From NCBI GenBank assembly GCA_026396715.1, contig JAPLWH010000004.1, forward strand, positions 1-41,121: 41,121 nucleotides of DNA, written 5' to 3'. Shown here piece by piece: positions 4,585 through 15,484 of this stretch. The notes beneath the pieces are model-generated. The model was not told the origin of the DNA. It ran no database searches and worked only from the letters and a program-made list of their open reading frames with translations. Both the position numbers and the translations under genes were made by a program. How positions within the stretch are numbered: position 1 is the stretch's first letter; each line of letters opens with the position of its first letter. Origin of the DNA: Candidatus Kaiserbacteria bacterium (lineage in GTDB: Bacteria; Patescibacteriota; Minisyncoccia; Phycocordibacterales; Phycocordibacteraceae).

Positions 4585-5486
4585 ATACTACACGTCTGAA
4601 AAATGGTGATGTCCCAGTGATTCGACTCTTGTACATATTGATTTTGACAGGAATCCGAACGAATCGGACCACCCGAATCACCTCCTCGTTGACCCGTAAG
4701 GGGAAGCTTTTGAAGAAAAGCGTTGAGGGTAGAATTCGTCGAGTCAATATCGACTTTATAACCATTTTCATGACTATATTGACCGGAAGCATGTCCGGGC
4801 TCAGTACCCCCGGTAACTATAACTGGACAGCCACCACATGAGTTTTTAATATTAATTATCTGATCCACAGTTGCTTGCTGCATGCCGGCCACATTGGTAC
4901 AGCCACTCCCGCTACTGTCAGGAGAACACGGACCATTATTAATCATGACGCCAGATTGCTGTAATGAGTCCCGTATTGCCCGCTCAGCTGCCGATCCCTG
5001 AACTACAGAGAGACCTTCTGTTTTTGCCGGATTAAGACTTGCTTTAAGCGGGATACAAACAGGGAGACCCTTCGAGCCGATGATGTCTGACCACGTCGAG
5101 CCAACAGCTTTTGGGTTGTAGAGCACTGCCATAAGTGCCGCGACAATCATCCACCCTGCAAGCGCGATGACGATGCCAACGACAGTATTAGTAAGGATTT
5201 TCTTAGCCTCTTCCTTACCGCTCGCATTTACCGGATTGACGACGAAGAGAAAACCTGAATATGCGACCATGAGCGGCGCGACAAAGACAATTACGAGCGT
5301 GATGAGGAGCTCGATGATGTTATTGATGACTGTCAGGAGCATTCCCCAGCTCGCCGCACATACGGCCTGATCCCCCGATTGCGGAATGATGGGACCAAAG
5401 AACGGTATGGACGCATGCGCGGCAAGCGGGAGCGCGAACGAACACACCGTAAACAAGAGCATGAGTGCAGGGACGCGGAAACGCAT
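4581..5486 (-). CDS. TrbC/VirB2-like pilin domain fused to a Cys-rich, M15-like Zn peptidase domain
   Basis: Signal peptide, two TM helices around EEAKKILTNTVVGIVI, then VTGGTEPGH...SHENGYKVDID...HWD. Confidence 0.6.
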   Translation of the reverse strand: MRFRVPALMLLFTVCSFALPLAAHASIPFFGPIIPQSGDQAVCAASWGMLLTVINNIIELLITLVIVFVAPLMVAYSGFLFVVNPVNASGKEEAKKILTNTVVGIVIALAGWMIVAALMAVLYNPKAVGSTWSDIIGSKGLPVCIPLKASLNPAKTEGLSVVQGSAAERAIRDSLQQSGVMINNGPCSPDSSGSGCTNVAGMQQATVDQIINIKNSCGGCPVIVTGGTEPGHASGQYSHENGYKVDIDSTNSTLNAFLQKLPLTGQRGGDSGGPIRSDSCQNQYVQESNHWDITIFQTCSI

Positions 5487-5668
5487 AACTACATCATACC
5501 GCGCACCAGCAGCTGGTGCGCGGCTTTTCCCCCACCCCTCTATCTGCTATCTTTCATCTGTGAGGTATCGTTTCTACCTCTCTTCGGGTCCATATCGAAA
5601 TGCCGATATGAACCCTCGTTCGGCGAAAGAGAATGAACGGAGACGCTCATTACTCTTTGCCTCTCTTC

Positions 5669-5739
5669 GGGTCCATCGTATAATGGTAGTACATCGCTCT
5701 CCAAAAGCGACAGCCCAGGTCCGATTCCTGGTGGGCCCG
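5669..5739 (+). tRNA. tRNA-Trp(CCA)
   Basis: GGGTCCA/TGGGCCC acceptor stem, TCGCT-CT-CCA-AA-AGCGA anticodon arm, CCAGG-TCCGATT-CCTGG T arm. Confidence 0.92.
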
Positions 5740-5785
5740 CAAAAGCACAACACCTGCCCTGCGGCAGGTGTTGTGCTTTTGCGGG
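5736..5785. repeat. 23-bp perfect inverted repeat overlapping the tRNA-Trp 3' end
   Basis: CCCGCAAAAGCACAACACCTGCC-ctgc-GGCAGGTGTTGTGCTTTTGCGGG. Confidence 0.85.
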
Positions 5786-5786
5786 G

Positions 5787-5872
5787 GCCGAAGCGATGTT
5801 TCGCTAGCAAGCGAAACCGCGAGGCGGGGTAACGGAAAATCCTTTGCGACGGCAAAGGATTTATCCGTGACC
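5787..5872 (+). ncRNA. tRNA-associated structured motif, copy A
   Basis: GCC-GAA-GC[hairpin]GC-GA-GGC-GGGGT[hairpin]GTGACC; same architecture as 14490-14589. Confidence 0.55.
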
Positions 5873-6013
5873 GCAAAGAAACATCCACCAGGTGTACTGA
5901 AGCTTTAAGCTTCGATACATGTAATCATGGCCCTGGTGGCAATTTTGCGAGCGACGGCGAGTGTTCGAGTCGAGGGAGATAAGGTGTAATCGATGGTCCT
6001 AGTGAGCCCGTCC

Positions 6014-6049
6014 AAACGAAAACCGTCCCTCAAGGGACGGTTTTCGTTT
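6014..6049. terminator. Bidirectional terminator at the rpmG 3' end
   Basis: AAACGAAAACCGTCCCT-ca-AGGGACGGTTTTCGTTT. Confidence 0.8.
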
Positions 6050-6052
6050 TAA

Positions 6053-6208
6053 CTAACGCTTTGCCTCCTTAAAGGTAACGCGCTTCCTGAGCGTTGGGTC
6101 GAACTTCTGGAGTTCGATCTTGCGCTCGGTGGTCTTCCTATTCTTACGAGTCCAAATGACGTGATTGGACTTCGTGGATTTGAGCCTAAGTAGGCGGTCT
6201 TGTGACAT
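6053..6208 (-). CDS. rpmG: 50S ribosomal protein L33, Cys-free form (absent from the ORF track)
   Basis: Hand translation MSQDRLLRLKSTKSNHVIWTRKNRKTTERKIELQKFDPTLRKRVTFKEAKR; promoter TTGCGG-17-TACATT. Confidence 0.92.
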   Translation of the reverse strand: MSQDRLLRLKSTKSNHVIWTRKNRKTTERKIELQKFDPTLRKRVTFKEAKR

Positions 6209-6252
6209 ACGGAAAATGTAACAGATTCATCGGTATGCCGCAAGCAAAGTGC

Positions 6253-6343
6253 GGGGGCAATTTTTGAGACTCCCGCAGGGCGACGGCCCGAGGGCGAGGC
6301 GATTTTTCAGCAGAAAAATACGCCGTGCTCAAAAATTGCCACC
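6253..6343. repeat. Small palindromic (MITE/REP-like) element between clpB and rpmG
   Basis: GGCAATTTTTGAG (6256-6268) and CTCAAAAATTGCC (6328-6340) enclose GC-rich hairpins. Confidence 0.6.
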
Positions 6344-6353
6344 GTGCGGAGCG

Positions 6354-9035
6354 CTATGCTGCGGAGATTACAGCACTTGCGCGCGCCGTCTTCGGCGCGC
6401 GTTTCTTTACCTCGAAGTGCGGCTCGCCATTTTTGATGGAGACGAGCACGGTACCCCCTTCCATAACCCCCTGATCGACCATAAGTGACGCGAGCGGGGT
6501 CAGTATCTTGTCCTGGATCGTACGGCGCAGCGGGCGGGCGCCATACTGCGGATTGTAGCCCTTCTCCGCGAGCCACTGCCGCACTTCGGGCGTAAAGGAA
6601 AGCGCGATACGCTTCTGCGCGAGACGCTTCATGACTTCCTCGACCTGCGTATCGACAATCTTGGCGAGCGCCTCCTTCGCGAGCACATCGAAGATGATGA
6701 TATCGTCGAGCCGGTTCAAGAACTCGGGACGGAAGTGCTCTTTGAGCGCGCCCATGACCCGCTCTTTCGTCTCCTCGTAGCGACTTGCATCGGTCGCGCC
6801 CGCGACGCCGAAACCGATGTGCGCGAGACGATCGATGAATTCCCCGCCAATGTTCGAAGTCAGTACGATAATCGTATTCTTGAAATTGACCTTGCGTCCT
6901 TTGCCGTCGGTCAAATGTCCAGAATCAAGAACTTGCAGCAGAATATTGAATACTTCCGGATGCGCTTTTTCGATCTCATCGAACAGCACCACCGCGTACG
7001 GGCGATGCCGGATGCGCTCGGTCAACGAGCCGGACTCTTCATAACCGACATAGCCCGGCGGCGCGCCAATGAGCTTCGCGACCGAGTGCTTCTCCATGAA
7101 TTCGCTCATGTCCACGCGCACCAGAGAGTCTGTATCGTTGAACATGAATTCAGCGATTTTCTTTGAGAGCTCCGTCTTGCCAACACCGGTCGGCCCGAGG
7201 AAGAGGAACGAGCCAATCGGGCGATTCGGATCAGAGATGCCCACCCGCGAGCGCTTTACCGCATCCGTGACTTTCTTCACTGCATTGTCCTGGCCGATGA
7301 TACTGCTCTTGAGCGTCTCTTCCATGCGCGAAAGTTTCGCCGCCTCTTCTTCAAGCATGCGTGAGACCGGGATGCCCGTCCAGCGCGAGACGACACCAGC
7401 AATGTCTTGCTCAGCCACTTCTTCATTCAAAACACGACGCGACTTCTGCAGCGCCTTCAAGCGCTTCAACTTCGTCTCCAAGTCTTTCTGAATGTGCGGA
7501 ATCTTTCCATAACGAATCTCCGCAACCGTACCGAGATCGGCAGCGGCTTCGGCATTGTCCGCCTGCACTTTAAGCGCTTCAAGCTCGGTCTTAGCGACGC
7601 GGATGCCGGTCAAAATCTCCTTCTCATTCTTCCACTTGAGTTCAAGCTCGCTCGTCTTTTCTTTCAGGTCAGCGACTTCTACGTCGATGGCCTTAATGCG
7701 CTCTTTAATCTCTTTCGAGTGCTCGCCTTCCAGGTCTTTCTGGAGCGCCTGTCGCTCGATCTCGAGGCGGCGAATCTTCCGGTCGGTCTCTTCAAGGAGC
7801 GGCGGCTTGTTCTCAAGCGCGATGCGCAGCCCCGACGCCGCTTCGTCGATGAGGTCGATGGCCTTGTCCGGCAGGAAACGGTCAGTAATGTAGCGCGCGG
7901 AGAGCTCGACGGCAGCGACGATGGCGCCGTCGGTAATGCGCACGCCATGAAAAAGCTCGTACTTGTCGCGGAGCCCGCGCAGGATGGCGATGCCGTCTTC
8001 GATCGACGGCTCGCTCACGAAAACCGACTGGAAACGGCGCGTGAGCGCGGCGTCTTTCTCGATGTATTTCTGATATTCCTTGAGCGTGGTCGCGCCGATG
8101 ACGCGGATCTCGCCGCGGCTGAGCGCGGGCTTCAGCATGTTCGATGCATCGAGCGAGCCCTCCGCGCCGCCGGCGCCGACCAGCGTGTGAAGCTCGTCGA
8201 CGAAGAGGATGACCTTCCCTTCCGCGCGCTCCACTTCTTTCATGACGTTCTTCATCCGCTCTTCGAACTCGCCGCGGTACTTGGTGCCAGCGATCATGAG
8301 CCCGAGATCGAGCGAAAGGAGCTCCTTGCCTTTGAGCGACTCAGGAACGTCATTGCTTGCCATGCGTGCCGCGAGCCCTTCCGCGATTGCCGTCTTGCCG
8401 ACGCCCGCCTCGCCGATGAGGACCGGATTATTCTTCGTGCGGCGCGCGAGGATCTGAATGACGCGATTGATCTCCTGGTCGCGGCCGATGACCGGATCGA
8501 GCTTGTTCTCAGCGGCCATCTTGGTAAGGTTGCGCGCATACTTCGCGAGCGCGCGGAAACGCTTCGGCTCGACGACCTGACCGTCCTTCGAATTCTTGAG
8601 CTCTTTGAGCACGGCGAGCGCGGCGTTCTGCGTGATCGCAAAACGCGTAAAGAGATCGGCCGCCGGACCCGGATGCTCGATGACCGAAAGGAACAGGTGC
8701 TCCGTACCGACAAAAGTATCGTTCAATCGTGCCGCTATCTTTCCTGACGATTCGAGCGCCTGCGCGAGATCCGGCGTGAGATAAATCTGGTAGGAAGGCG
8801 AGAGTACCGACGCGTTTTCTGGCGTCTCCAGGTGTTCGAGCACCGTGTCGGCGAGCAAGTTCGTATCGACTTCCATCCGATCGAGCATCGAGTACACGAG
8901 TGATTCTTCCTGCAGCACAAGTGCGGCGAGCAGGTGGAGCGGCGAGACATGGTTCTGCCCGCGTTCTATCGCGAGCTCATGCGCGCGACGCACGGCTTCT
9001 TTAGCTTTGGTCGTAAAATTGTTAAAAGGAGGCAT
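6354..9035 (-). CDS. clpB: Chaperone ClpB
   Basis: Clp N-domain, two AAA+ modules ([16 protein letters not shown]), long coiled-coil M-domain with AEIRYG. Confidence 0.95.
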
Positions 9036-9048
9036 AGATATAAAAGTA

Positions 9049-9819
9049 TTACTTCACGACCGGCGTCGAGGTTGCCGTCGTCGGAACCGCTGTCAAAAGC
9101 ATCGTTATCTTATCCGCCGAAATCAAAAGTCCGGTCGACTCTCCGCCACTGATACCGATGAGATTTCCTGAGAGATCAACAACCGCAGCACCAACACCAA
9201 TGTCCGGCAAGGTGGTATACACGCCCTTGGCAGTCACGCGCGCGACGATGCCAGTCGAAGCGTAACCATCAGAACCGAGCGCGAGCACAGTCTGGCCGAG
9301 TTTCAAATCAGCAGCAGCAAGGAGGACCGGCGAAACCATCTTCGGAAGTACGGCGCCATCGGCGAAACCGTAGACGGCAATACCCTTACCTTCATGCGAG
9401 AGCGATGCGAAAATAAATGCGCCGTTCGTAAACTCTATGAGCGCTTCTTTCGGCAAGACTTCAAGCGCTGCTGTCGCAACGGCGCGCGCCTTCGGAATAT
9501 ACGTGCCGACCGCAATGGCTGGCGTCGAAGTGCCGGTCTCTGCCGCATAAATAGCGACGGCGCGCGACGCATTCGCCCCAATCGCTGCCGTTACGAGATC
9601 CTGATTCGAAGGTGCAGATGCTTGAATGATCGCCGCAGGCGCAGCAGCAGTAACCGTTTCGATAGTGTGTTCGACCACGCGATTGACTGTCTGAGTAACA
9701 AAAGGCGGAGCTTTGTCGAGCAGCGAGACCGTCAAAATACCCGTCGCAACGGAAGTCACGAAGTTCACCAAGATCGTGAGGAGGATGAGTTGAGATTTTG
9801 AAAGTTCCTCAATGTTCAT
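9049..9819 (-). CDS. Membrane-anchored degenerate trypsin/HtrA-like protein
   Basis: N-terminal TM, LKLGQTVLALG, STGIVA, AVVDLSGNLIGI; catalytic GNSGG absent. Confidence 0.6.
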   Translation of the reverse strand: MNIEELSKSQLILLTILVNFVTSVATGILTVSLLDKAPPFVTQTVNRVVEHTIETVTAAAPAAIIQASAPSNQDLVTAAIGANASRAVAIYAAETGTSTPAIAVGTYIPKARAVATAALEVLPKEALIEFTNGAFIFASLSHEGKGIAVYGFADGAVLPKMVSPVLLAAADLKLGQTVLALGSDGYASTGIVARVTAKGVYTTLPDIGVGAAVVDLSGNLIGISGGESTGLLISADKITMLLTAVPTTATSTPVVK

Positions 9820-9831
9820 GCAACCATAATG

Positions 9832-10980
9832 CTACCCTTGATTGCTGTTGTCAATAAATGCGACTGCCCGAATAAGTGCCTTCGCGAAACGAGCCAATTC
9901 GCGCGGATATGTATCCGGTCCCCAGGAAATGCGAAGTGTCGCGCGAGCACGTTCGGGGTCTCCCGTAAGCGCGAGGACCGCCCGAGAACCTTCTTCGGAA
10001 TCCGTCTCGCAGGCGCTGCGTGAGGAAATGGCGAAACCGGCTTCATCGAGGAGCGCGACGATATAGTCCGTATCGCGGCCGGGAAGCGAAAGATTGAGGA
10101 TATGCGGCGCCTGTGAACGGCCTTCTTGTATATGTATGTTCAAAATAGCCGTAAGGGCCGCCTTGAGAAGCGTTCTGTTCTTTTCTGCGGAGACGCGAAA
10201 AGATTCGCGGCCAAGCACGGCGGCGGCGAGCGCGGCCGCGAAACTCTGTGCGAGCTCCGGCGCTTCGCTTCCGGAGCGTAGTCCGCGCTCCTGCCCGCCG
10301 CCAGCATACAGCGGCACGAGCGGAATCGTGCGATGCGCGATGAGCATTCCGATACCGCGCGCCGCACTGACCTTCGACGCATCGAAGGTCAGCATGTCCG
10401 CACCGAAATGCGCGCGCGAAATCTTTTCAGTGAGCGGCGCCTGACTTGCGTCGACATGCAGCATGATGCGCGCGGCGACTCCGTCGCCGCGCGCCTTTCG
10501 GAGCGTTTCAGCGACCTCGCGCGTATTCCACACCACGCCCGTCTCGCCACACACAGCGTCCATCGAGACAAGCACCGTCTCCTTTCGGATCATCGCCGCA
10601 AGCCTTTCACTATCGATGCGATAGTCTTTGACCGGAAGCGCCTCGATAGTGATGCCCTCCCTCGCCAATACGTTCATATTTTCGACGATTGAGGCGTGCG
10701 AGCTCGACAGATACAAAACGTGCATGTTATTTCTGCCCGGCACATCCGGACCAGCGAGCAAACGTAAGGCGCGCACATGCCCGAGGATGGCGAGCGCATT
10801 GCTCTCTGTCGCGCCGCTCGTGAAGAGGACGTCGTCCGGCTGTACCTCCGTGAGCCGCGCAATGGCTGTCCGCGCGTCTTCAAGCATCTTCTTCGCAAGC
10901 CGCCCTTCCTCGTGCGGCGACGACGGATTGCCACGTACCCCTGCGGCATAGTCGAGATAGGTTCTCCGCTTCCAAAACAT
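9832..10980 (-). CDS. Cysteine desulfurase (IscS/NifS family, PLP-dependent)
   Basis: YLDYAA, GNPSS, FTSGATESN, HVDASQA, GGGQERGLRSG, SSRSAC. Confidence 0.9.
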   Translation of the reverse strand: MFWKRRTYLDYAAGVRGNPSSPHEEGRLAKKMLEDARTAIARLTEVQPDDVLFTSGATESNALAILGHVRALRLLAGPDVPGRNNMHVLYLSSSHASIVENMNVLAREGITIEALPVKDYRIDSERLAAMIRKETVLVSMDAVCGETGVVWNTREVAETLRKARGDGVAARIMLHVDASQAPLTEKISRAHFGADMLTFDASKVSAARGIGMLIAHRTIPLVPLYAGGGQERGLRSGSEAPELAQSFAAALAAAVLGRESFRVSAEKNRTLLKAALTAILNIHIQEGRSQAPHILNLSLPGRDTDYIVALLDEAGFAISSRSACETDSEEGSRAVLALTGDPERARATLRISWGPDTYPRELARFAKALIRAVAFIDNSNQG

Positions 10981-11090
10981 AGGTTGATTCTACCGCACCC
11001 GCCGCTATTTCCTAACCGTTTCTCGCTATGCTAGATTTCGCCCAGAAGACAATTCGACTGATCTTTCCAATTCGCCACAAAGGAGAAAAA

Positions 11091-11633
11091 ATGAACACGT
11101 ACCTTATCTTGTTTCTCATTCCTAATCCGTTCTGTATACGGCTCTGCCGACTGATGGATGGCATCACGTCTATAACCGGCCTCACGCCGCCGTATCGGAA
11201 TCTCCCGCCACACGTTACCTTTCATAGACCTCTAACAGGCATTGTTGATGAGACCGTTTTGAAAGAGCTCTTGAGAGACACTGTCGCACGAATGAGGCAG
11301 ACGCGGATTACGCTCCACGGATTGTCTACGTTCGAAAAACAGTTTGTCATTCTTCCGGTCCAGGCGACTCGCGGTGCAGCGACGCTATGGGTGGAGATAG
11401 CAAAAGTCCTATCGCAACTACCGGAATATAAGCCGGGCGAATACGACAATGACAACACGTTACACGTTACCGTTGCTGAAAAAACCTCGCGCATTTTTGA
11501 TCAAGTATGGCCGAAAATCAGAAATATCGAGACCGAGATCATGCACATTCCCCTGCAAAGAATCGCGCTATATCGAAAACCGTTTGAGGGAGGCGTATGG
11601 AAGCAAATCGCCACCTTCCCTATTCCCGTATAA
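11091..11633 (+). CDS. 2H phosphoesterase (2'-5' RNA ligase-like family)
   Basis: Two HxT motifs (PHVTF, LHVTV); AAGGAG precedes ATG 11091. Confidence 0.8.
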   Translation: MNTYLILFLIPNPFCIRLCRLMDGITSITGLTPPYRNLPPHVTFHRPLTGIVDETVLKELLRDTVARMRQTRITLHGLSTFEKQFVILPVQATRGAATLWVEIAKVLSQLPEYKPGEYDNDNTLHVTVAEKTSRIFDQVWPKIRNIETEIMHIPLQRIALYRKPFEGGVWKQIATFPIPV

Positions 11634-11646
11634 AGACCCTTTTGAA

Positions 11647-11680
11647 CGCCTCGCCGCTTACCGGCGAGGCGGTTTTTATT
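11647..11680 (+). terminator. Intrinsic terminator
   Basis: CGCCTCGCCG-cttac-CGGCGAGGCG followed by GTTTTTATT. Confidence 0.75.
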
Positions 11681-11736
11681 GGTGCTGTCTCGAAAACATT
11701 GCAATTGAGTCATTTTTGTGATGAAATAGAGCCATT

Positions 11737-13206
11737 ATGGCGCGGACTCAAAGACCGCCCGTCATCGCGGTGATGGGCCATATAGACCACGGCAAGTCTT
11801 CGCTTCTGGATTACATCCGGAAGGCGACTGTCGTCGCGGGCGAAGCGGGCGGCATCACGCAGCACGTCGCTGCGTATATCGCGCTCCACAATGAGCGTCC
11901 GATCACTTTCCTCGATACGCCCGGGCACGAAGCCTTCAAAGCGCTCCGCACGCGCGGCGCGGCCGCGGCCGACATCAGTATCCTCGTTGTCGCCGCAGAC
12001 GAAGGCGTGATGCCGCAGACACTCGATGCGCTCGCCGCCATCACTGAAGCGGGAATCCCCTACATCGTCGCAATCACGAAGATCGACAAAAATAATGCCG
12101 ACGTCGGACACGCGAAGAACTCGCTTACTGAACACGGCATCTATATAGAAGGTATGGGCGGCGATATTGCCTTCGCGCTTGTCTCGTCGAAAACCGGCGA
12201 GGGCGTCCCGGAACTCCTCGACCTCGTCCTCCTCTCGGCAGATCTCGCCGACATTACCGCCGACCCAGAGGCAAGCGCGACGGGCTTCATCCTCGAAGCG
12301 ACACAAGACGCAAAGCGCGGCGCCTCGGCGACCCTCATCATAAAAGACGGCACGCTCACGCTCGACGGCTTCGTCGTTGCAGGTGATGCGTTCGCACCGA
12401 TCCGCTTCATCGAGAATTTCCTCGGCAAGCGCGCCCCAAGCGCGGGACCCTCAGAGCCGGTGCGCATTTCCGGATTCTCCAAGCTGCCGTCCGCCGGTTC
12501 CCTGTTCAGTGTTGTGAAGAGCAAGAAGGAAGCAGAGGCGCTCGCCAAAGAGAATGCAAAGTCGTTTTCGGCGGTGCCCGAGCGCGCGGCGGCGGTTGCA
12601 GGCATTACCGAGCTCCCGCTCATCATCAAAGCGGACGTCGCTGGTTCAGTTGATGCGATTGTGCATGAACTGAAAAAGATTACCCACGAACGCGCTTCGA
12701 TCCGCATCGTCTCATCGGGCGTCGGCAGCATTTCAGAGACCGACGTAAAGACCGCGCGCGGTGCAGGCGGGACGATCATAGCTTTCAACGTCTCGACTGA
12801 CGCGATCGCAAGCGACCTCGCACAGCGCGAGAGTATTTCAATCTTCTCATTCTCAATAATTTATGAACTGTCGGCGAAGATCAAAGAATTGCTCGCCGCC
12901 TGCGTCCCAGTCATCTCCGCCGAGAAAGAACTCGGACGTGCCCTCGTCTTGAAAACCTTTTCCTCGGGTACAAAGAAGCAAGTCCTCGGCGCGCGCCACA
13001 TCAAAGGCATCCTGACGGTCGGCGACCGCGTGAAGATTATGCGGAAAGATGTCGAGATTGCGCGCGGCAGCATCGGCAATCTCCAGCAGGCGCGCGCCGA
13101 CGTCAAAGAGATCAAGACCGAAGGCGACTTCGGCACCGAGATCGAAGCACGCGAAAATGCCGTCTACGGCGACGAGCTTATCGCTTTCGTCGTTACTGAA
13201 CTATGA
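11737..13206 (+). CDS. infB: Translation initiation factor IF-2, short form lacking the N-terminal domains
   Basis: [44 protein letters not shown]. Confidence 0.95.
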
Positions 13207-13207
13207 A

Positions 13208-13326
13208 TGCCGTTAGAAATCGCGGACGCATCGGTCGATACCAAAAAACAGGTTCGATTATTAACTCTAACCGAATAGGGTTCGGCTGCGCCACAAGTGG
13301 TGCGTTCGCGTCCTATTTCTAACGGT
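13208..13326 (+). mobile_element. Start-codon-inserted hairpin element, copy 1 (rbfA)
   Basis: ATGAA|TGCCGTTAGAAAT...TCCTATTTCTAACGGT|ATGAA. Confidence 0.7.
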
Positions 13327-13659
13327 ATGAACCCTGACGCTCGCATACGCACCCCTCGCAAGCAGTCGAATCGCGCGACTGAGATCGTCGCACGCGAAGC
13401 TGCGCAATTCATCGCGCGTGAAGCCGGGCGAGAATCCCTCATTACCGTCATTCAGGCGCGCAGCGTCGCGCACGGTGATCGCATTCTCGTTTTCGTGAGC
13501 GTCTTCCCTGTCGAAAAAGCTCACGCGGCAATGGCTTTCCTTGAGCGTCAGCGCGAAGCATTTTCCGACCACTTAAAGACGCATGCGCGCATGCGCCTCC
13601 CGCGCGTCGATTTCCTACTTGATAACGGCGAACCGTTAGCGGAACCTGCAAAAAGTTAG
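13327..13659 (+). CDS. rbfA: Ribosome-binding factor A
   Basis: Directly after infB; LITVIQARS..DRILVFVSVFP and LPRVDFLLD match the RbfA pattern. Confidence 0.8.
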   Translation: MNPDARIRTPRKQSNRATEIVAREAAQFIAREAGRESLITVIQARSVAHGDRILVFVSVFPVEKAHAAMAFLERQREAFSDHLKTHARMRLPRVDFLLDNGEPLAEPAKS

Positions 13660-13673
13660 TATCATCAAGAAAC

Positions 13674-13745
13674 GGCCCGGTGGTGAAGCGGTAACACAGC
13701 GCTCTGCAAAAGCGCGATGCGCGGGTTCGATTCCCGCCCGGGCCT
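13674..13745 (+). tRNA. tRNA-Cys(GCA)
   Basis: GGCCCGG/CCGGGCC acceptor stem, GCGCT-CT-GCA-AA-AGCGC anticodon arm, U discriminator. Confidence 0.95.
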
Positions 13746-13809
13746 CAAAGAGGTATACGTATGTGGATATAAGATTACCTGACTGTACCCAATGGGATAC
13801 AATTAGCCT

Positions 13810-14328
13810 GTGAACCGACGACGAACCTGGACACTTCTACAATTGCAAGAAGCCGTAAAAACTTCTACAAGCTTGCGGCAGGTTATTGCGAAACTGGATC
13901 TTGTTCCTGCTGGTGGTAACTATGTACAAGTTTCCAAAGCCATCAACGATCAGAAATTGAGCACGTCGCATTTCAAAGGACAAGGATGGAATAAGGGGAT
14001 GCGAATTCCCAAAGAGCCGATATATGAACTAAAAGATATCTTGGTTCTAAATAGCCACTATGGCTTGTATCATCTAAAACAACGCCTTTTTAAAATAGGC
14101 TTGAAAGAAGCGAAATGCGAAGAGTGTGGTTGGGCTCAAGTGAGTCCTGACGGACGAATACCAATTGAACTTGACCACATAAACGGAAATCGATACGACA
14201 ACCGACTTGAGAATCTGCGTATCCTTTGTCCCAATTGCCATAGCTTGAAACCCACTCATCGTGGTAAAAATAAGAAAGCACGCCGAGGTGGTGAAACTGG
14301 TAGACACGCGACGCTTAAAACGTTGTGA
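13810..14328 (+). CDS. HNH endonuclease
   Basis: CEECG...IELDHINGNRYDNRLENLRILCPNCHS; AT-rich; 3' end overlaps tRNA-Leu. Confidence 0.9.
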   Translation: MNRRRTWTLLQLQEAVKTSTSLRQVIAKLDLVPAGGNYVQVSKAINDQKLSTSHFKGQGWNKGMRIPKEPIYELKDILVLNSHYGLYHLKQRLFKIGLKEAKCEECGWAQVSPDGRIPIELDHINGNRYDNRLENLRILCPNCHSLKPTHRGKNKKARRGGETGRHATLKTL

Positions 14329-14372
14329 GCTTTAATCGGCTCTTGTGGGTTCGATTCCCACCCTCGGCACCA
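14282..14372 (+). tRNA. tRNA-Leu(TAA)
   Basis: GCCGAGG/CCTCGGC acceptor stem, CT-TAA-AA anticodon loop, long variable arm, encoded CCA. Confidence 0.93.
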
Positions 14373-14489
14373 CAAGAGTACTTCAGAAAACATAGTCGTG
14401 AGTACACTTCTTGTTTTCTTGGTCGCACAGCAGAAGCGCAGCGAATGTTGTGTGGGGAGCATGCGATAGCGTGCGAGTGGGAATCGAAT

Positions 14490-14589
14490 GGCGGAGCCAT
14501 ATGCGAGTCTCCGAGCATATGGCGAGCCGGGGTCGAGAGTGCGAGACGGATTGCGAATACTTGGAGCAATCCGTCCGTAACTCGTGACC
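14490..14589 (+). ncRNA. tRNA-associated structured motif, copy B
   Basis: GGC-GGA-GC[hairpin]GC-GA-GCC-GGGGT[hairpin]GTGACC. Confidence 0.55.
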
Positions 14590-14592
14590 GAT

Positions 14593-14607
14593 CCACCCTC
14601 GGCACCA
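14593..14607 (+). repeat. Direct repeat of the tRNA-Leu(TAA) 3' end (att-like)
   Basis: CCACCCTCGGCACCA is identical to 14358-14372. Confidence 0.85.
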
Positions 14608-14626
14608 TGTTACGATACGCGAACCT

Positions 14627-15484
14627 ATGGAGCCTGTTTGTTATCTAAATGGAGCGATCACTCCTCTTAAAGACGCGCGGGTCGGTATACTCGACCTCGG
14701 CGTGCTTCGCGGCTTCGGCATCTACGACGGACTCACTTCCTTTGCCGGAGAGCCGTTCCGTTTCAAGGATCACTGGGAACGATTCCAAGTTGCTGCGAAC
14801 ACACTCGGCCTGACCATACCGCATACGAAAGAGGAGGTGCAGAACGTGATGCGCGCAGTCATCGCTCACAACGCGCCCGGAGTGCGAGCAAATCTCCGCA
14901 TGGTGCTGACTGGCGGCGAAGCAAAAGGAGGCCTTGAGCCGGTGCCGTGGCGCGAGACTCTTTTCATTACTGCAGAGGCAGCTGTACCCTTGCCCGCCGC
15001 GCTCTACGAGCGCGGCGGGAGTCTCCTGTCATACGAGCATCAACGTCTCATGCCGGAGATCAAGACGACCAATTACATTACGGCCGTGCTACTCCAAAAA
15101 AAGCGCGCGGCTGCGGGTGCAGTCGAGATTCTCTACACAACTGGCGGCCGCGTACTCGAATGCGCGACGAGCAATGTATGCATCGTAAAAAATGGTGTCG
15201 TCGCGACCCCCGATACCGGAGTGCTCAAAGGCGTTACTCGCAAAATAGTCCTCGAGCTTGCGCAGGGCGCGTACCCGACCGAGGAACGCGCAATCTCGAC
15301 CGATGAGGTCTTTGCTGCTGATGAGGTGTTCATCACGGGATCTTTCAAAGACCTCATGCCCATCGTCTCGATAGACGGGCACGCCATCGGCTCTGGAACT
15401 CCCGGCCCCATTACGCGCGACCTCATGCAACGCTTCGCCGAGTACACAAAGCGCAATATTGAAGAGAACGCCTCCATCGTGTAG
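14627..15484 (+). CDS. Class IV PLP aminotransferase (IlvE/D-amino-acid transaminase-like)
   Basis: RGFGIYDGL, HWERF, IKTTNY, ECATSNV, VLKGVTR, ADEVFITGS. Confidence 0.9.
   Translation: MEPVCYLNGAITPLKDARVGILDLGVLRGFGIYDGLTSFAGEPFRFKDHWERFQVAANTLGLTIPHTKEEVQNVMRAVIAHNAPGVRANLRMVLTGGEAKGGLEPVPWRETLFITAEAAVPLPAALYERGGSLLSYEHQRLMPEIKTTNYITAVLLQKKRAAAGAVEILYTTGGRVLECATSNVCIVKNGVVATPDTGVLKGVTRKIVLELAQGAYPTEERAISTDEVFAADEVFITGSFKDLMPIVSIDGHAIGSGTPGPITRDLMQRFAEYTKRNIEENASIV

Follow-up and report, generated by a model that had tools for sequence, protein, structure and literature searches.

A structured trailer module with flanks fitted to its host tRNA in Candidatus Kaiserbacteria and related Patescibacteria

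Introduction

What occupies the 270 nucleotides that follow the tRNA-Trp gene of a Candidatus Kaiserbacteria bacterium, and how did pieces of the 3' end of that tRNA come to lie there in both orientations? The locus belongs to the window analysed here, a stretch of 41,121 nucleotides (positions 1 to 41,121 of contig JAPLWH010000004.1, assembly GCA_026396715.1). A preliminary description of the window had pointed to a two-hairpin motif behind tRNA-Trp, to a motif of the same frame behind a tRNA-Leu gene, and to sense and antisense copies of the tRNA-Trp 3' end around the former, and had offered two interpretations: a family of mobile mini-elements targeting tRNA genes, or one of co-transcribed RNAs, in either case with flanks tailored to each host tRNA.

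Segments of tRNA genes recur in more than one known genetic setting. Islands and prophages integrated at tRNA genes are bracketed by direct repeats of a tRNA 3' segment (attL and attR) and leave the tRNA intact, and tRNA-like 3' structures are found in the tRNA-like domain of tmRNA and at viral tRNA-like ends.

A further setting is provided by the tRNA-linked repeats of Escherichia coli, of which the excerpted text of one study counts 22 in ten loci, the last 18-19 bp of each repeat corresponding to the 3' end of the upstream tRNA or rRNA (PMC8144298). According to the same excerpts these repeats have been known since 1978 and have no known function, an early claim having been withdrawn, and the older work cited there comprises that of Egan and Landy (1978), Rudd (1999) and Bosl and Kersten (1991/1994) (PMC8144298). 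Three of the units, located 3' of 5S rRNA, are there reported to lie between two terminators, to be transcribed by read-through and processed, and to bind Hfq and CsrA in vitro (PMC8144298).

Composition of the tRNA-Trp trailer and its sister copy

The tRNA-Trp trailer is a composite of units (Table 1), and its fold is much more stable than that of shuffled sequences (z = -10.4). The plus strand holds no open reading frame above 46 amino acids lying wholly inside 5741-6010, and the neighbours of the locus are an ORF of 301 amino acids and a ClpB-like ORF of 893. The named records closest in ClpB come from Candidatus Kaiserbacteria (89%) and from Paceibacterota MAGs, which places the genome in the Patescibacteria (CPR). 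The leading hairpin (5741-5780) is lengthened by pairing of the last bases of the tRNA (CCCGC, 5736-5740) with GCGGG at 5781-5785; it has the look of a terminator, but its T-run lies within the stem and a consensus terminator scan made no call there. Counterparts of this hairpin were found 3' of tRNAs in relatives. GCGGG, one of the antisense pieces named in the preliminary description, also pairs with the CCCG of the 3' copy when the isolated trailer is folded. Positions 5781-5872 correspond to a unit of short type, made up of hairpin, 5-nt antisense arm and core.

The module that follows is of another subtype. The other antisense piece, CCACCAGG at 5885-5892, exists as described, and in the fold it closes this module by pairing with CCTGGTGG at 5934-5941, a second and partial sense copy of the tRNA-Trp tail that had escaped the preliminary description. 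The stretch 5863-5938 resembles units 3' of tRNA-Gln and tRNA-Arg(tcg) (nhmmer), and a regular expression for the subtype gave three matches, all in this genome. The remainder, 5946-6010, is the tail of an older unit. Its decayed 12/14 copy of the tRNA-Trp 3' end scores 12/16, which is borderline by itself, as other tRNAs reach 9-11/16; the copy is nevertheless taken as real because 5948-6008 shares 89% identity with the last part of the unit 3' of tRNA-Trp in relative G006, a unit that terminates in an intact tRNA-Trp tail.

Table 1. Features of the tRNA-Trp trailer and of the tRNA-Leu(taa) sister copy in the window
Feature	Position	Strand	Basis
tRNA-Trp(cca), host gene	5669-5740	+	ARAGORN; Rfam tRNA, 59 bits
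18-bp hairpin, CTGC loop	5741-5780	+	RNA fold
GCGGG, short antisense copy of tRNA-Trp 3' terminal bases	5781-5785	+	Sequence
Core hairpin 1: closing helix, G-N-A/G-A internal loop, covarying inner stem	5787-5825	+	Alignment and RNAalifold
Core hairpin 2: GGT...ACC closing, one bulged A, GCGACGGC tip	5828-5872	+	RNAalifold and R1
Second module, other subtype: GTGTACTGA-hairpin-TCGA...GTAATC	5873-5943	+	nhmmer and fold
Older unit's remainder: GAGCGACGGCGA-tip hairpin (5949-5960), then GTCGAGGGAGA...GTAATCG	5946-5996	+	Identity to G006 unit; motif position
Decayed sense copy (12/14) of tRNA-Trp 3' end	5997-6010	+	Sequence comparison
16-bp hairpin closing the Trp locus	6014-6049	+	Fold; terminator-like, consensus scan negative
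tRNA-Leu(taa), host gene of sister copy	14282-14372	+	ARAGORN; Rfam tRNA
Antisense copy of tRNA-Leu T-stem 3' strand and T-loop, ending AATCGAA	14475-14488	+	Sequence
Core motif, sister copy with longer hairpin 2	14490-14589	+	R1, 57 bits
Exact 15-nt sense copy of tRNA-Leu 3' end including CCA	14593-14607	+	Identity ends exactly at CCA

The sister copy behind tRNA-Leu(taa) is a plain full unit, with an orthologous core 3' of tRNA-Leu(taa) in G009 and a trailer fold that is less stable relative to shuffles than that of tRNA-Trp (z = -4.0). On the other side of the same tRNA, an HNH endonuclease ORF (Pfam HNH_3 and HNH; 13810-14328) fills the spacer between tRNA-Cys and tRNA-Leu(taa), and with no stop ahead of the latter it enters the tRNA by 47 nt; in G009, G013 and G016 this spacer holds a trailer unit in place of the HNH ORF.

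A conserved two-hairpin core

The core of the unit extends over 86 positions and forms two hairpins with 25 pairs (RNAalifold). A covariance model, R1, was built from 18 aligned 86-nt copies drawn from this genome and its relatives (alignment A2). It matches the window at 5787-5872 (101 bits), where hairpins 1 and 2 are taken in jointly, and at 14490-14589 (57 bits), in each case over model positions 1-86, such that the common frame originally perceived in the two copies is borne out. The closing helix covaries as proposed, its second pair being C-G in 40 distinct rows, G-C in 17, U-A in 6 and A-U in 3, and the internal loop is kept, with G-N-A on the 5' strand and G-A on the 3' strand (G4, A6, G35 and A36 are invariant in alignment A2). 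The description of the loops as unrelated holds for the Trp and Leu(taa) copies but not for the family, most members of which have common loop types: an AGCA-type loop in hairpin 1 and a GAGCG-NNN-GCGA tip in hairpin 2 (alignment A2).

Covariation was assessed over 58 sources, consisting of the window, five other loci of the same genome and 52 loci of relatives, with E. coli loci, ClpB loci and duplicate own loci set aside; these sources gave 73 R1 matches and 70 distinct rows. Paired cells made up 95.0% of 1574, as against 66.6% in 500 shuffles (of which none equalled the observed value) and 29-49% when partners were slid, and changes on both sides were seen in 24 of the 25 pairs. The alignment of 70 rows was fitted to R1 itself; an independent check, in which MAFFT and RNAalifold were applied to 18 sequences, found compensation in 22 of 25 pairs. 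The core is thus a conserved structure of RNA type. G-U and U-G together account for 39 cells, compared with 14 for A-C and C-A, and this excess therefore favours folding as RNA of the tRNA-sense strand, with folding as single-stranded DNA also possible.

Linkage to tRNA genes and the fitting of the arms

A tRNA or tmRNA gene lies on the same strand within 400 nt upstream of 56 of the 72 distinct copies, both window copies included, where random placement would give about 1% by our arithmetic from 40 tRNAs in 705 kb; of the 16 copies lacking such a gene, 6 had less than 450 nt of upstream sequence. In the complete genome G016, from the same genus, 21 of 28 copies occur in arrays 3' of 13 tRNA genes and the tmRNA gene, and the other 7 follow decayed units, the 16S rRNA 3' end, or conserved RNA-like sequence.

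The flanks of the core match the cognate tRNA. When the 30 nt on either side of the core were compared with the tRNA (its last 28 nt in the antisense case), exact antisense runs of at least 9 nt were found before the core in 31 of 57 cognate pairings versus 6.9% of 3174 non-cognate ones, and exact sense runs of at least 9 nt after the core in 36 of 57 versus 1.8%. Two other measures discriminated less well: the longest contiguous helix separates the arms weakly (26/70 cognate, 17% non-cognate), and a fixed 7-nt window worked poorly (17/37 versus 10%). The antisense arm takes in the T-loop and is genuinely its reverse complement, as T-loops that are not palindromes make plain (ACTCGAA for TTCGAGT, GGTCGAA for TTCGACC). 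Many copies are without one of the two arms. Taken together, covariation, tRNA adjacency and fitted arms rule out chance as the origin of the pattern.

The sense copy begins in the T-loop, at about position 57 of the tRNA. An exact sense run of at least 10 nt, commonly 15-21, was present in 38 of 58 element-tRNA pairs and missing from the remaining 20. Of those 38 runs, 20 end within -2 to +4 nt of the tRNA 3' end, 3 end early, and 15 extend at least 10 nt into non-tRNA flank, the last group therefore representing duplication at the DNA level and no mimic of the mature end. The copies behind tRNA-Leu(gag) and tRNA-Gln read CCA, where the genes themselves read CAA. For the whole units of these two tRNAs, the minimum free energy fold has an acceptor-like helix of 8 bp, then one hairpin, then a T-like helix and, innermost, the two hairpins of the core (z = -6.8 and -3.2, respectively).

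Distribution and turnover of the family

The further copies anticipated in the preliminary description were found by R1: seven in the 705-kb assembly of this genome and, among relatives, 28 in G016, 3 in G023, 6 in G183, 6 in G120 and 4 in G166. With stricter filters, R1 found the module in 6 of 151 genomes across the phylum, this one counted. A BLAST query with the Trp trailer returned 22 of 41 genomes, namely this genome, 15 of 24 from the same genus and 6 of 16 from other genera of the order, and unit counts across the genus range from 0 to 28 per genome. Related stretches elsewhere in the genome (BLAST and nhmmer) lie 3' of tRNA-Leu(gag), Gln(ctg), Ser(gct), Arg(tcg), Ile(gat) and Pro(cgg), at the start of contig C5, and on contig C8 behind a tRNA-like 3' end that was not called as a gene; 8 of the 40 tRNA genes bear a unit. 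Rfam (release 15), at gathering thresholds, recognised six tRNAs and nothing else in the whole window, and the best non-tRNA match of a permissive scan of 5400-6300 reached 23 bits against a threshold of 55; no described Rfam family matches the module. Literature searches returned no paper on such modules in Patescibacteria. The module is a real, widespread and uncatalogued structured family with an apparently self-fitting design.

The occupancy of a given tRNA differs between close relatives. An empty site of the kind looked for in relatives exists at tRNA-Leu(taa), which carries a unit in G009 and here and none in G013, the downstream gene being the same one; across species of one genus, a single tRNA bears different unit types or none. 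Contigs of four DNA runs over the same stretch contained no joint across either element, and no presence/absence variation was thus caught; among the listed sequencing runs that contain window positions 5400-15000, none is recorded as an RNA run. Tandem arrays of two or three identical units occur. In G016, cores that are 86-91% identical stand 3' of different RNAs, each with arms of its own, a pattern which suggests that a unit has its arms formed from the target at the moment of its origin, and not by slow compensatory change.

Comparison with the tRNA-linked repeats of E. coli

The layout of these modules is that of the E. coli tRNA-linked repeats (TLR, including the RtT/rttR repeats of tyrT-tyrV, RF00391). 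Both lie directly 3' of a tRNA (or rRNA) gene on the same strand, both form tandem arrays, and in both a unit can sit between two hairpins. At their 3' terminus, E. coli units repeat the final 18-20 nt of the upstream RNA, and the exact 15-nt Leu(taa) copy and the 12/14 Trp copy correspond to this. In the E. coli units retrieved for comparison, an antisense arm to the T-stem 3' strand is followed by a GAGAA junction, which also appears in relatives G111, G120 and G183, and the flanks are repeated after the copy. A GAGCG-NN(N)-GCGA hairpin tip is likewise common to both; in the GC-rich genome studied here a loose pattern for this tip has 95 matches, 6 of them near tRNAs, and the exact tip 12-mer has 5 occurrences, 4 of them in units.

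The two groups differ in the core, whose pair of hairpins (the G-N-A/G-A loop in one, GGGGT...GTGACC forming the other) was not found in E. coli units, and in the acceptor-antisense arm and long hairpin that some units here have in addition; the phylum differs as well. The RtT model RF00391 gave no match at E<=1 in the whole genome, where a control search of E. coli K-12 gave 18, nor did it match any of the seven own loci or, at E<=10, positions 5400-6300. Membership in the Rfam RtT family was considered and is ruled out by this search. In the reverse direction, R1 recovers from E. coli units (tyrT locus) only an 18-nt hairpin tip, at E of about 1-4. Because the RtT model is negative here and R1 finds the tip only, homology is no more than a possibility: the modules resemble a tRNA-linked repeat in layout and apparent manner of working.

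Other elements in the vicinity of the units

A second tRNA-linked family is located on the 5' side of tRNA genes, at 5578-5668 of the window and on contigs C1, C5, C8, C13, C24 and C31 of the same assembly. Its order is a hairpin, the 5' strand of which copies the leader and the first tRNA bases, then TCGTTCGG(C/A)G, a second hairpin, CCTCACTTC-like bases and the start of the tRNA. At tRNA-Trp a 17-nt direct repeat is found at 5578 and 5661. A 10-nt pattern of this family occurs at 18 places in the genome, 8 of them 38-63 nt before a same-strand tRNA, and of 40 relatives just 2 were found by BLAST to have the family. With the units on the 3' side it forms a mirror-image layout around the tRNA.

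Loci resembling diversity-generating retroelements were encountered at C8:4700-6500 of this genome (L097) and at G016:115043-116284 (L096). Their make-up is that of a reverse transcriptase, a protein resembling bAvd (39.6 bits, the cut-off being 40) and a target gene whose C-terminal repeat is rich in Asn. The first lies a few hundred nucleotides from a trailer unit, and the second 565 nt upstream of a three-unit array. Their reverse transcriptases were considered as a partner enzyme of the units and set aside, as they belong to the retroelements and do not track the element; the nearness is taken as coincidence.

At C8:3990-4080 and at G016:103330-103430 (L083), about 100 nt of conserved sequence, closing with ...GGGGCACC(A), lie ahead of a trailer unit. 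ARAGORN and Rfam made no call on it, and it may be an unrecognised small stable RNA. At G016:501829-503300 (L089), three trailer units stand behind the tmRNA gene; next come an ORF of about 230 amino acids with a signal-peptide-like start (by our own reading) and a fourth unit that ends in a copy of the tmRNA tail; the gene appears to have been caught between units. At C13:16535-17895 (L007) of this genome, tRNA-Ile(gat) and a trailer unit come directly after the 3' end of the 16S rRNA gene, and what follows the unit reads as a protein-like ORF and not as 23S rRNA.

Discussion

The account that we favour, and consider reasonably probable, is that the segment behind tRNA-Trp is assembled from units of a trailer module linked to tRNAs, which would be to Patescibacteria what the repeats are to E. 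coli, and that this module is a candidate co-transcribed RNA which imitates the acceptor/T-arm half of a tRNA and is re-fitted at the DNA level. On the tRNA strand, a full unit would run from the tRNA through a spacer, often a long hairpin, to the antisense arm, the two-hairpin core and the sense copy, with the antisense arm copying the acceptor 3' strand, the T-stem 3' strand and T-loop, or both, and the sense copy spanning tRNA positions from about 57 to the 3' end. The unit would be transcribed together with its tRNA; against this, the hairpin between the two may stop transcription. A consensus scan called neither a promoter between tRNA and unit nor terminators at the hairpins. (A simple script for hairpins followed by T-runs gave hits before the core in 12 of 50 loci and after it in 10 of 50; it missed obvious hairpins and its result was not used.) In the transcript, pairing of the antisense arm with the sense copy would yield an acceptor/T-arm-like helix with a tRNA-like single-stranded 3' tail, the core taking the place of the T-loop. 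A helix and tail of that kind would be expected to let the enzymes that cut and finish tRNA 3' ends free and mature the unit, leaving a stable by-product RNA that might conceivably serve as a decoy or sponge for factors binding the top half of tRNA. At the DNA level, units would be duplicated, lost, and re-fitted to other stable-RNA genes by copying that makes both arms from the target, perhaps through template switching or gene conversion for which the conserved T-loop serves as anchor. Both interpretations in the preliminary description, mobile mini-element and co-transcribed RNA, may be true. Points against this account are that 7 of the 28 copies in G016, and some others, have no upstream tRNA, that many copies are without one arm, and that 15 of the 38 exact sense runs continue well into the flank.

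The predicted product invites comparison with the tRNA-like domain of tmRNA and the viral tRNA-like ends, with which it would share an acceptor/T-arm-like helix, a free 3' tail and sometimes an encoded CCA. It differs from them in copying whichever tRNA is upstream and in that ARAGORN and Rfam call nothing tRNA-like, the unit being without a T-loop because the core replaces it.

Three other readings of the module have to be weighed against the evidence above. A direct repeat of the 3' part of the tRNA is found at both ends of the insert here, as it is in tRNA-integrated islands, and the units might accordingly be scars or miniature derivatives of integrative elements, formed by a tyrosine integrase acting at the tRNA T-loop, with the sense copy being the displaced old tRNA end (attL/attR). 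That the repeats begin in the T-loop, that 15 of the 38 exact runs of 10 nt or more continue into the flank, that filled and empty sites are known for one tRNA, and that an ORF in G016 sits between units derived from the tmRNA end all agree with such an origin, which we nonetheless regard as quite unlikely. Units of 150-270 nt contain neither integrase nor cargo (no integrase gene was found within the 270-nt Trp insert, nor were the longer copies carrying a recombinase that the preliminary description had led one to look for); the core shows the covariation and G-U bias of an RNA fold; integration yields no antisense arm fitted to each tRNA; the repeat ends at the mature 3' end in 20 of 38 cases; and arrays of two or three identical units also speak against it. 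Alternatively, the module could supply the guide in an RNA-guided mobile system, comparable to bridge/seek RNAs or omega-RNAs, with its arms steering to tRNA genes a recombinase or nuclease whose own gene lies elsewhere. Arms that complement both strands of a target and are fitted to each one, and the near-identical cores found at different targets, are what such a system would display, yet no recombinase or nuclease gene is regularly adjacent, no Rfam match was obtained, and known guides, to our knowledge, do not pair two arms over one target stretch as these arms do. No recombinase or TnpB/IscB appears among the ORFs around either window copy, and the genome's single Y1_Tnp match is on another contig. 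Among five genomes tested, RVT_1 matches occurred in all five, including the element-free G003 and G011, and Y1_Tnp matches in three, without correlation and with none in the element-bearing G120, so that neither domain tracks the element. This reading appears very improbable.

It is also conceivable that the module acts only in cis within the tRNA transcription unit, as a signal for termination or 3' processing, and never exists as a separate RNA or mobile unit. Its constant presence on the strand of the tRNA and near its 3' end, and the long hairpins that take in the last bases of the tRNA, would fit a signal of this kind, as would its placement between two hairpins, which recalls the E. coli rrnB unit as presented in the excerpted text (PMC8144298). 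However, only 8 of 40 tRNA genes in this genome have the module, the same tRNA may be filled or empty among close relatives, tandem arrays and copies without an upstream tRNA exist, and a simple signal needs neither an 86-nt conserved core nor a second copy of the tRNA end; we therefore think a purely cis-acting role unlikely.

If the favoured account of a re-fitted trailer module is extended beyond this phylum, the Patescibacteria modules and the E. coli repeats might together represent one ancient, bacteria-wide class of self-fitting, protein-less mobile RNA/DNA modules that imitate the top half of stable RNAs and ride on tRNA promoters and processing enzymes, a proposal that we put forward tentatively and with considerable doubt. 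Were it true, a module landing behind a new tRNA, tmRNA or rRNA gene would have both of its arms made from that target. What the present analysis supplies is a sequence-unrelated and identically laid-out family in distant, tiny genomes, with up to dozens of copies per genome and clean covariation, and with it material for comparison of a kind that was lacking in E. coli: a core of defined structure, defined boundaries (from about position 57 to the mature 3' end), filled and empty sites, and recently diverged cores. The questions of what a mimic of the tRNA top half does, and of how both arms come to fit a new host RNA, are thereby opened to testing, and the family deserves a covariance model of its own, with which such repeats would no longer be misread as integration scars or pseudo-tRNAs.
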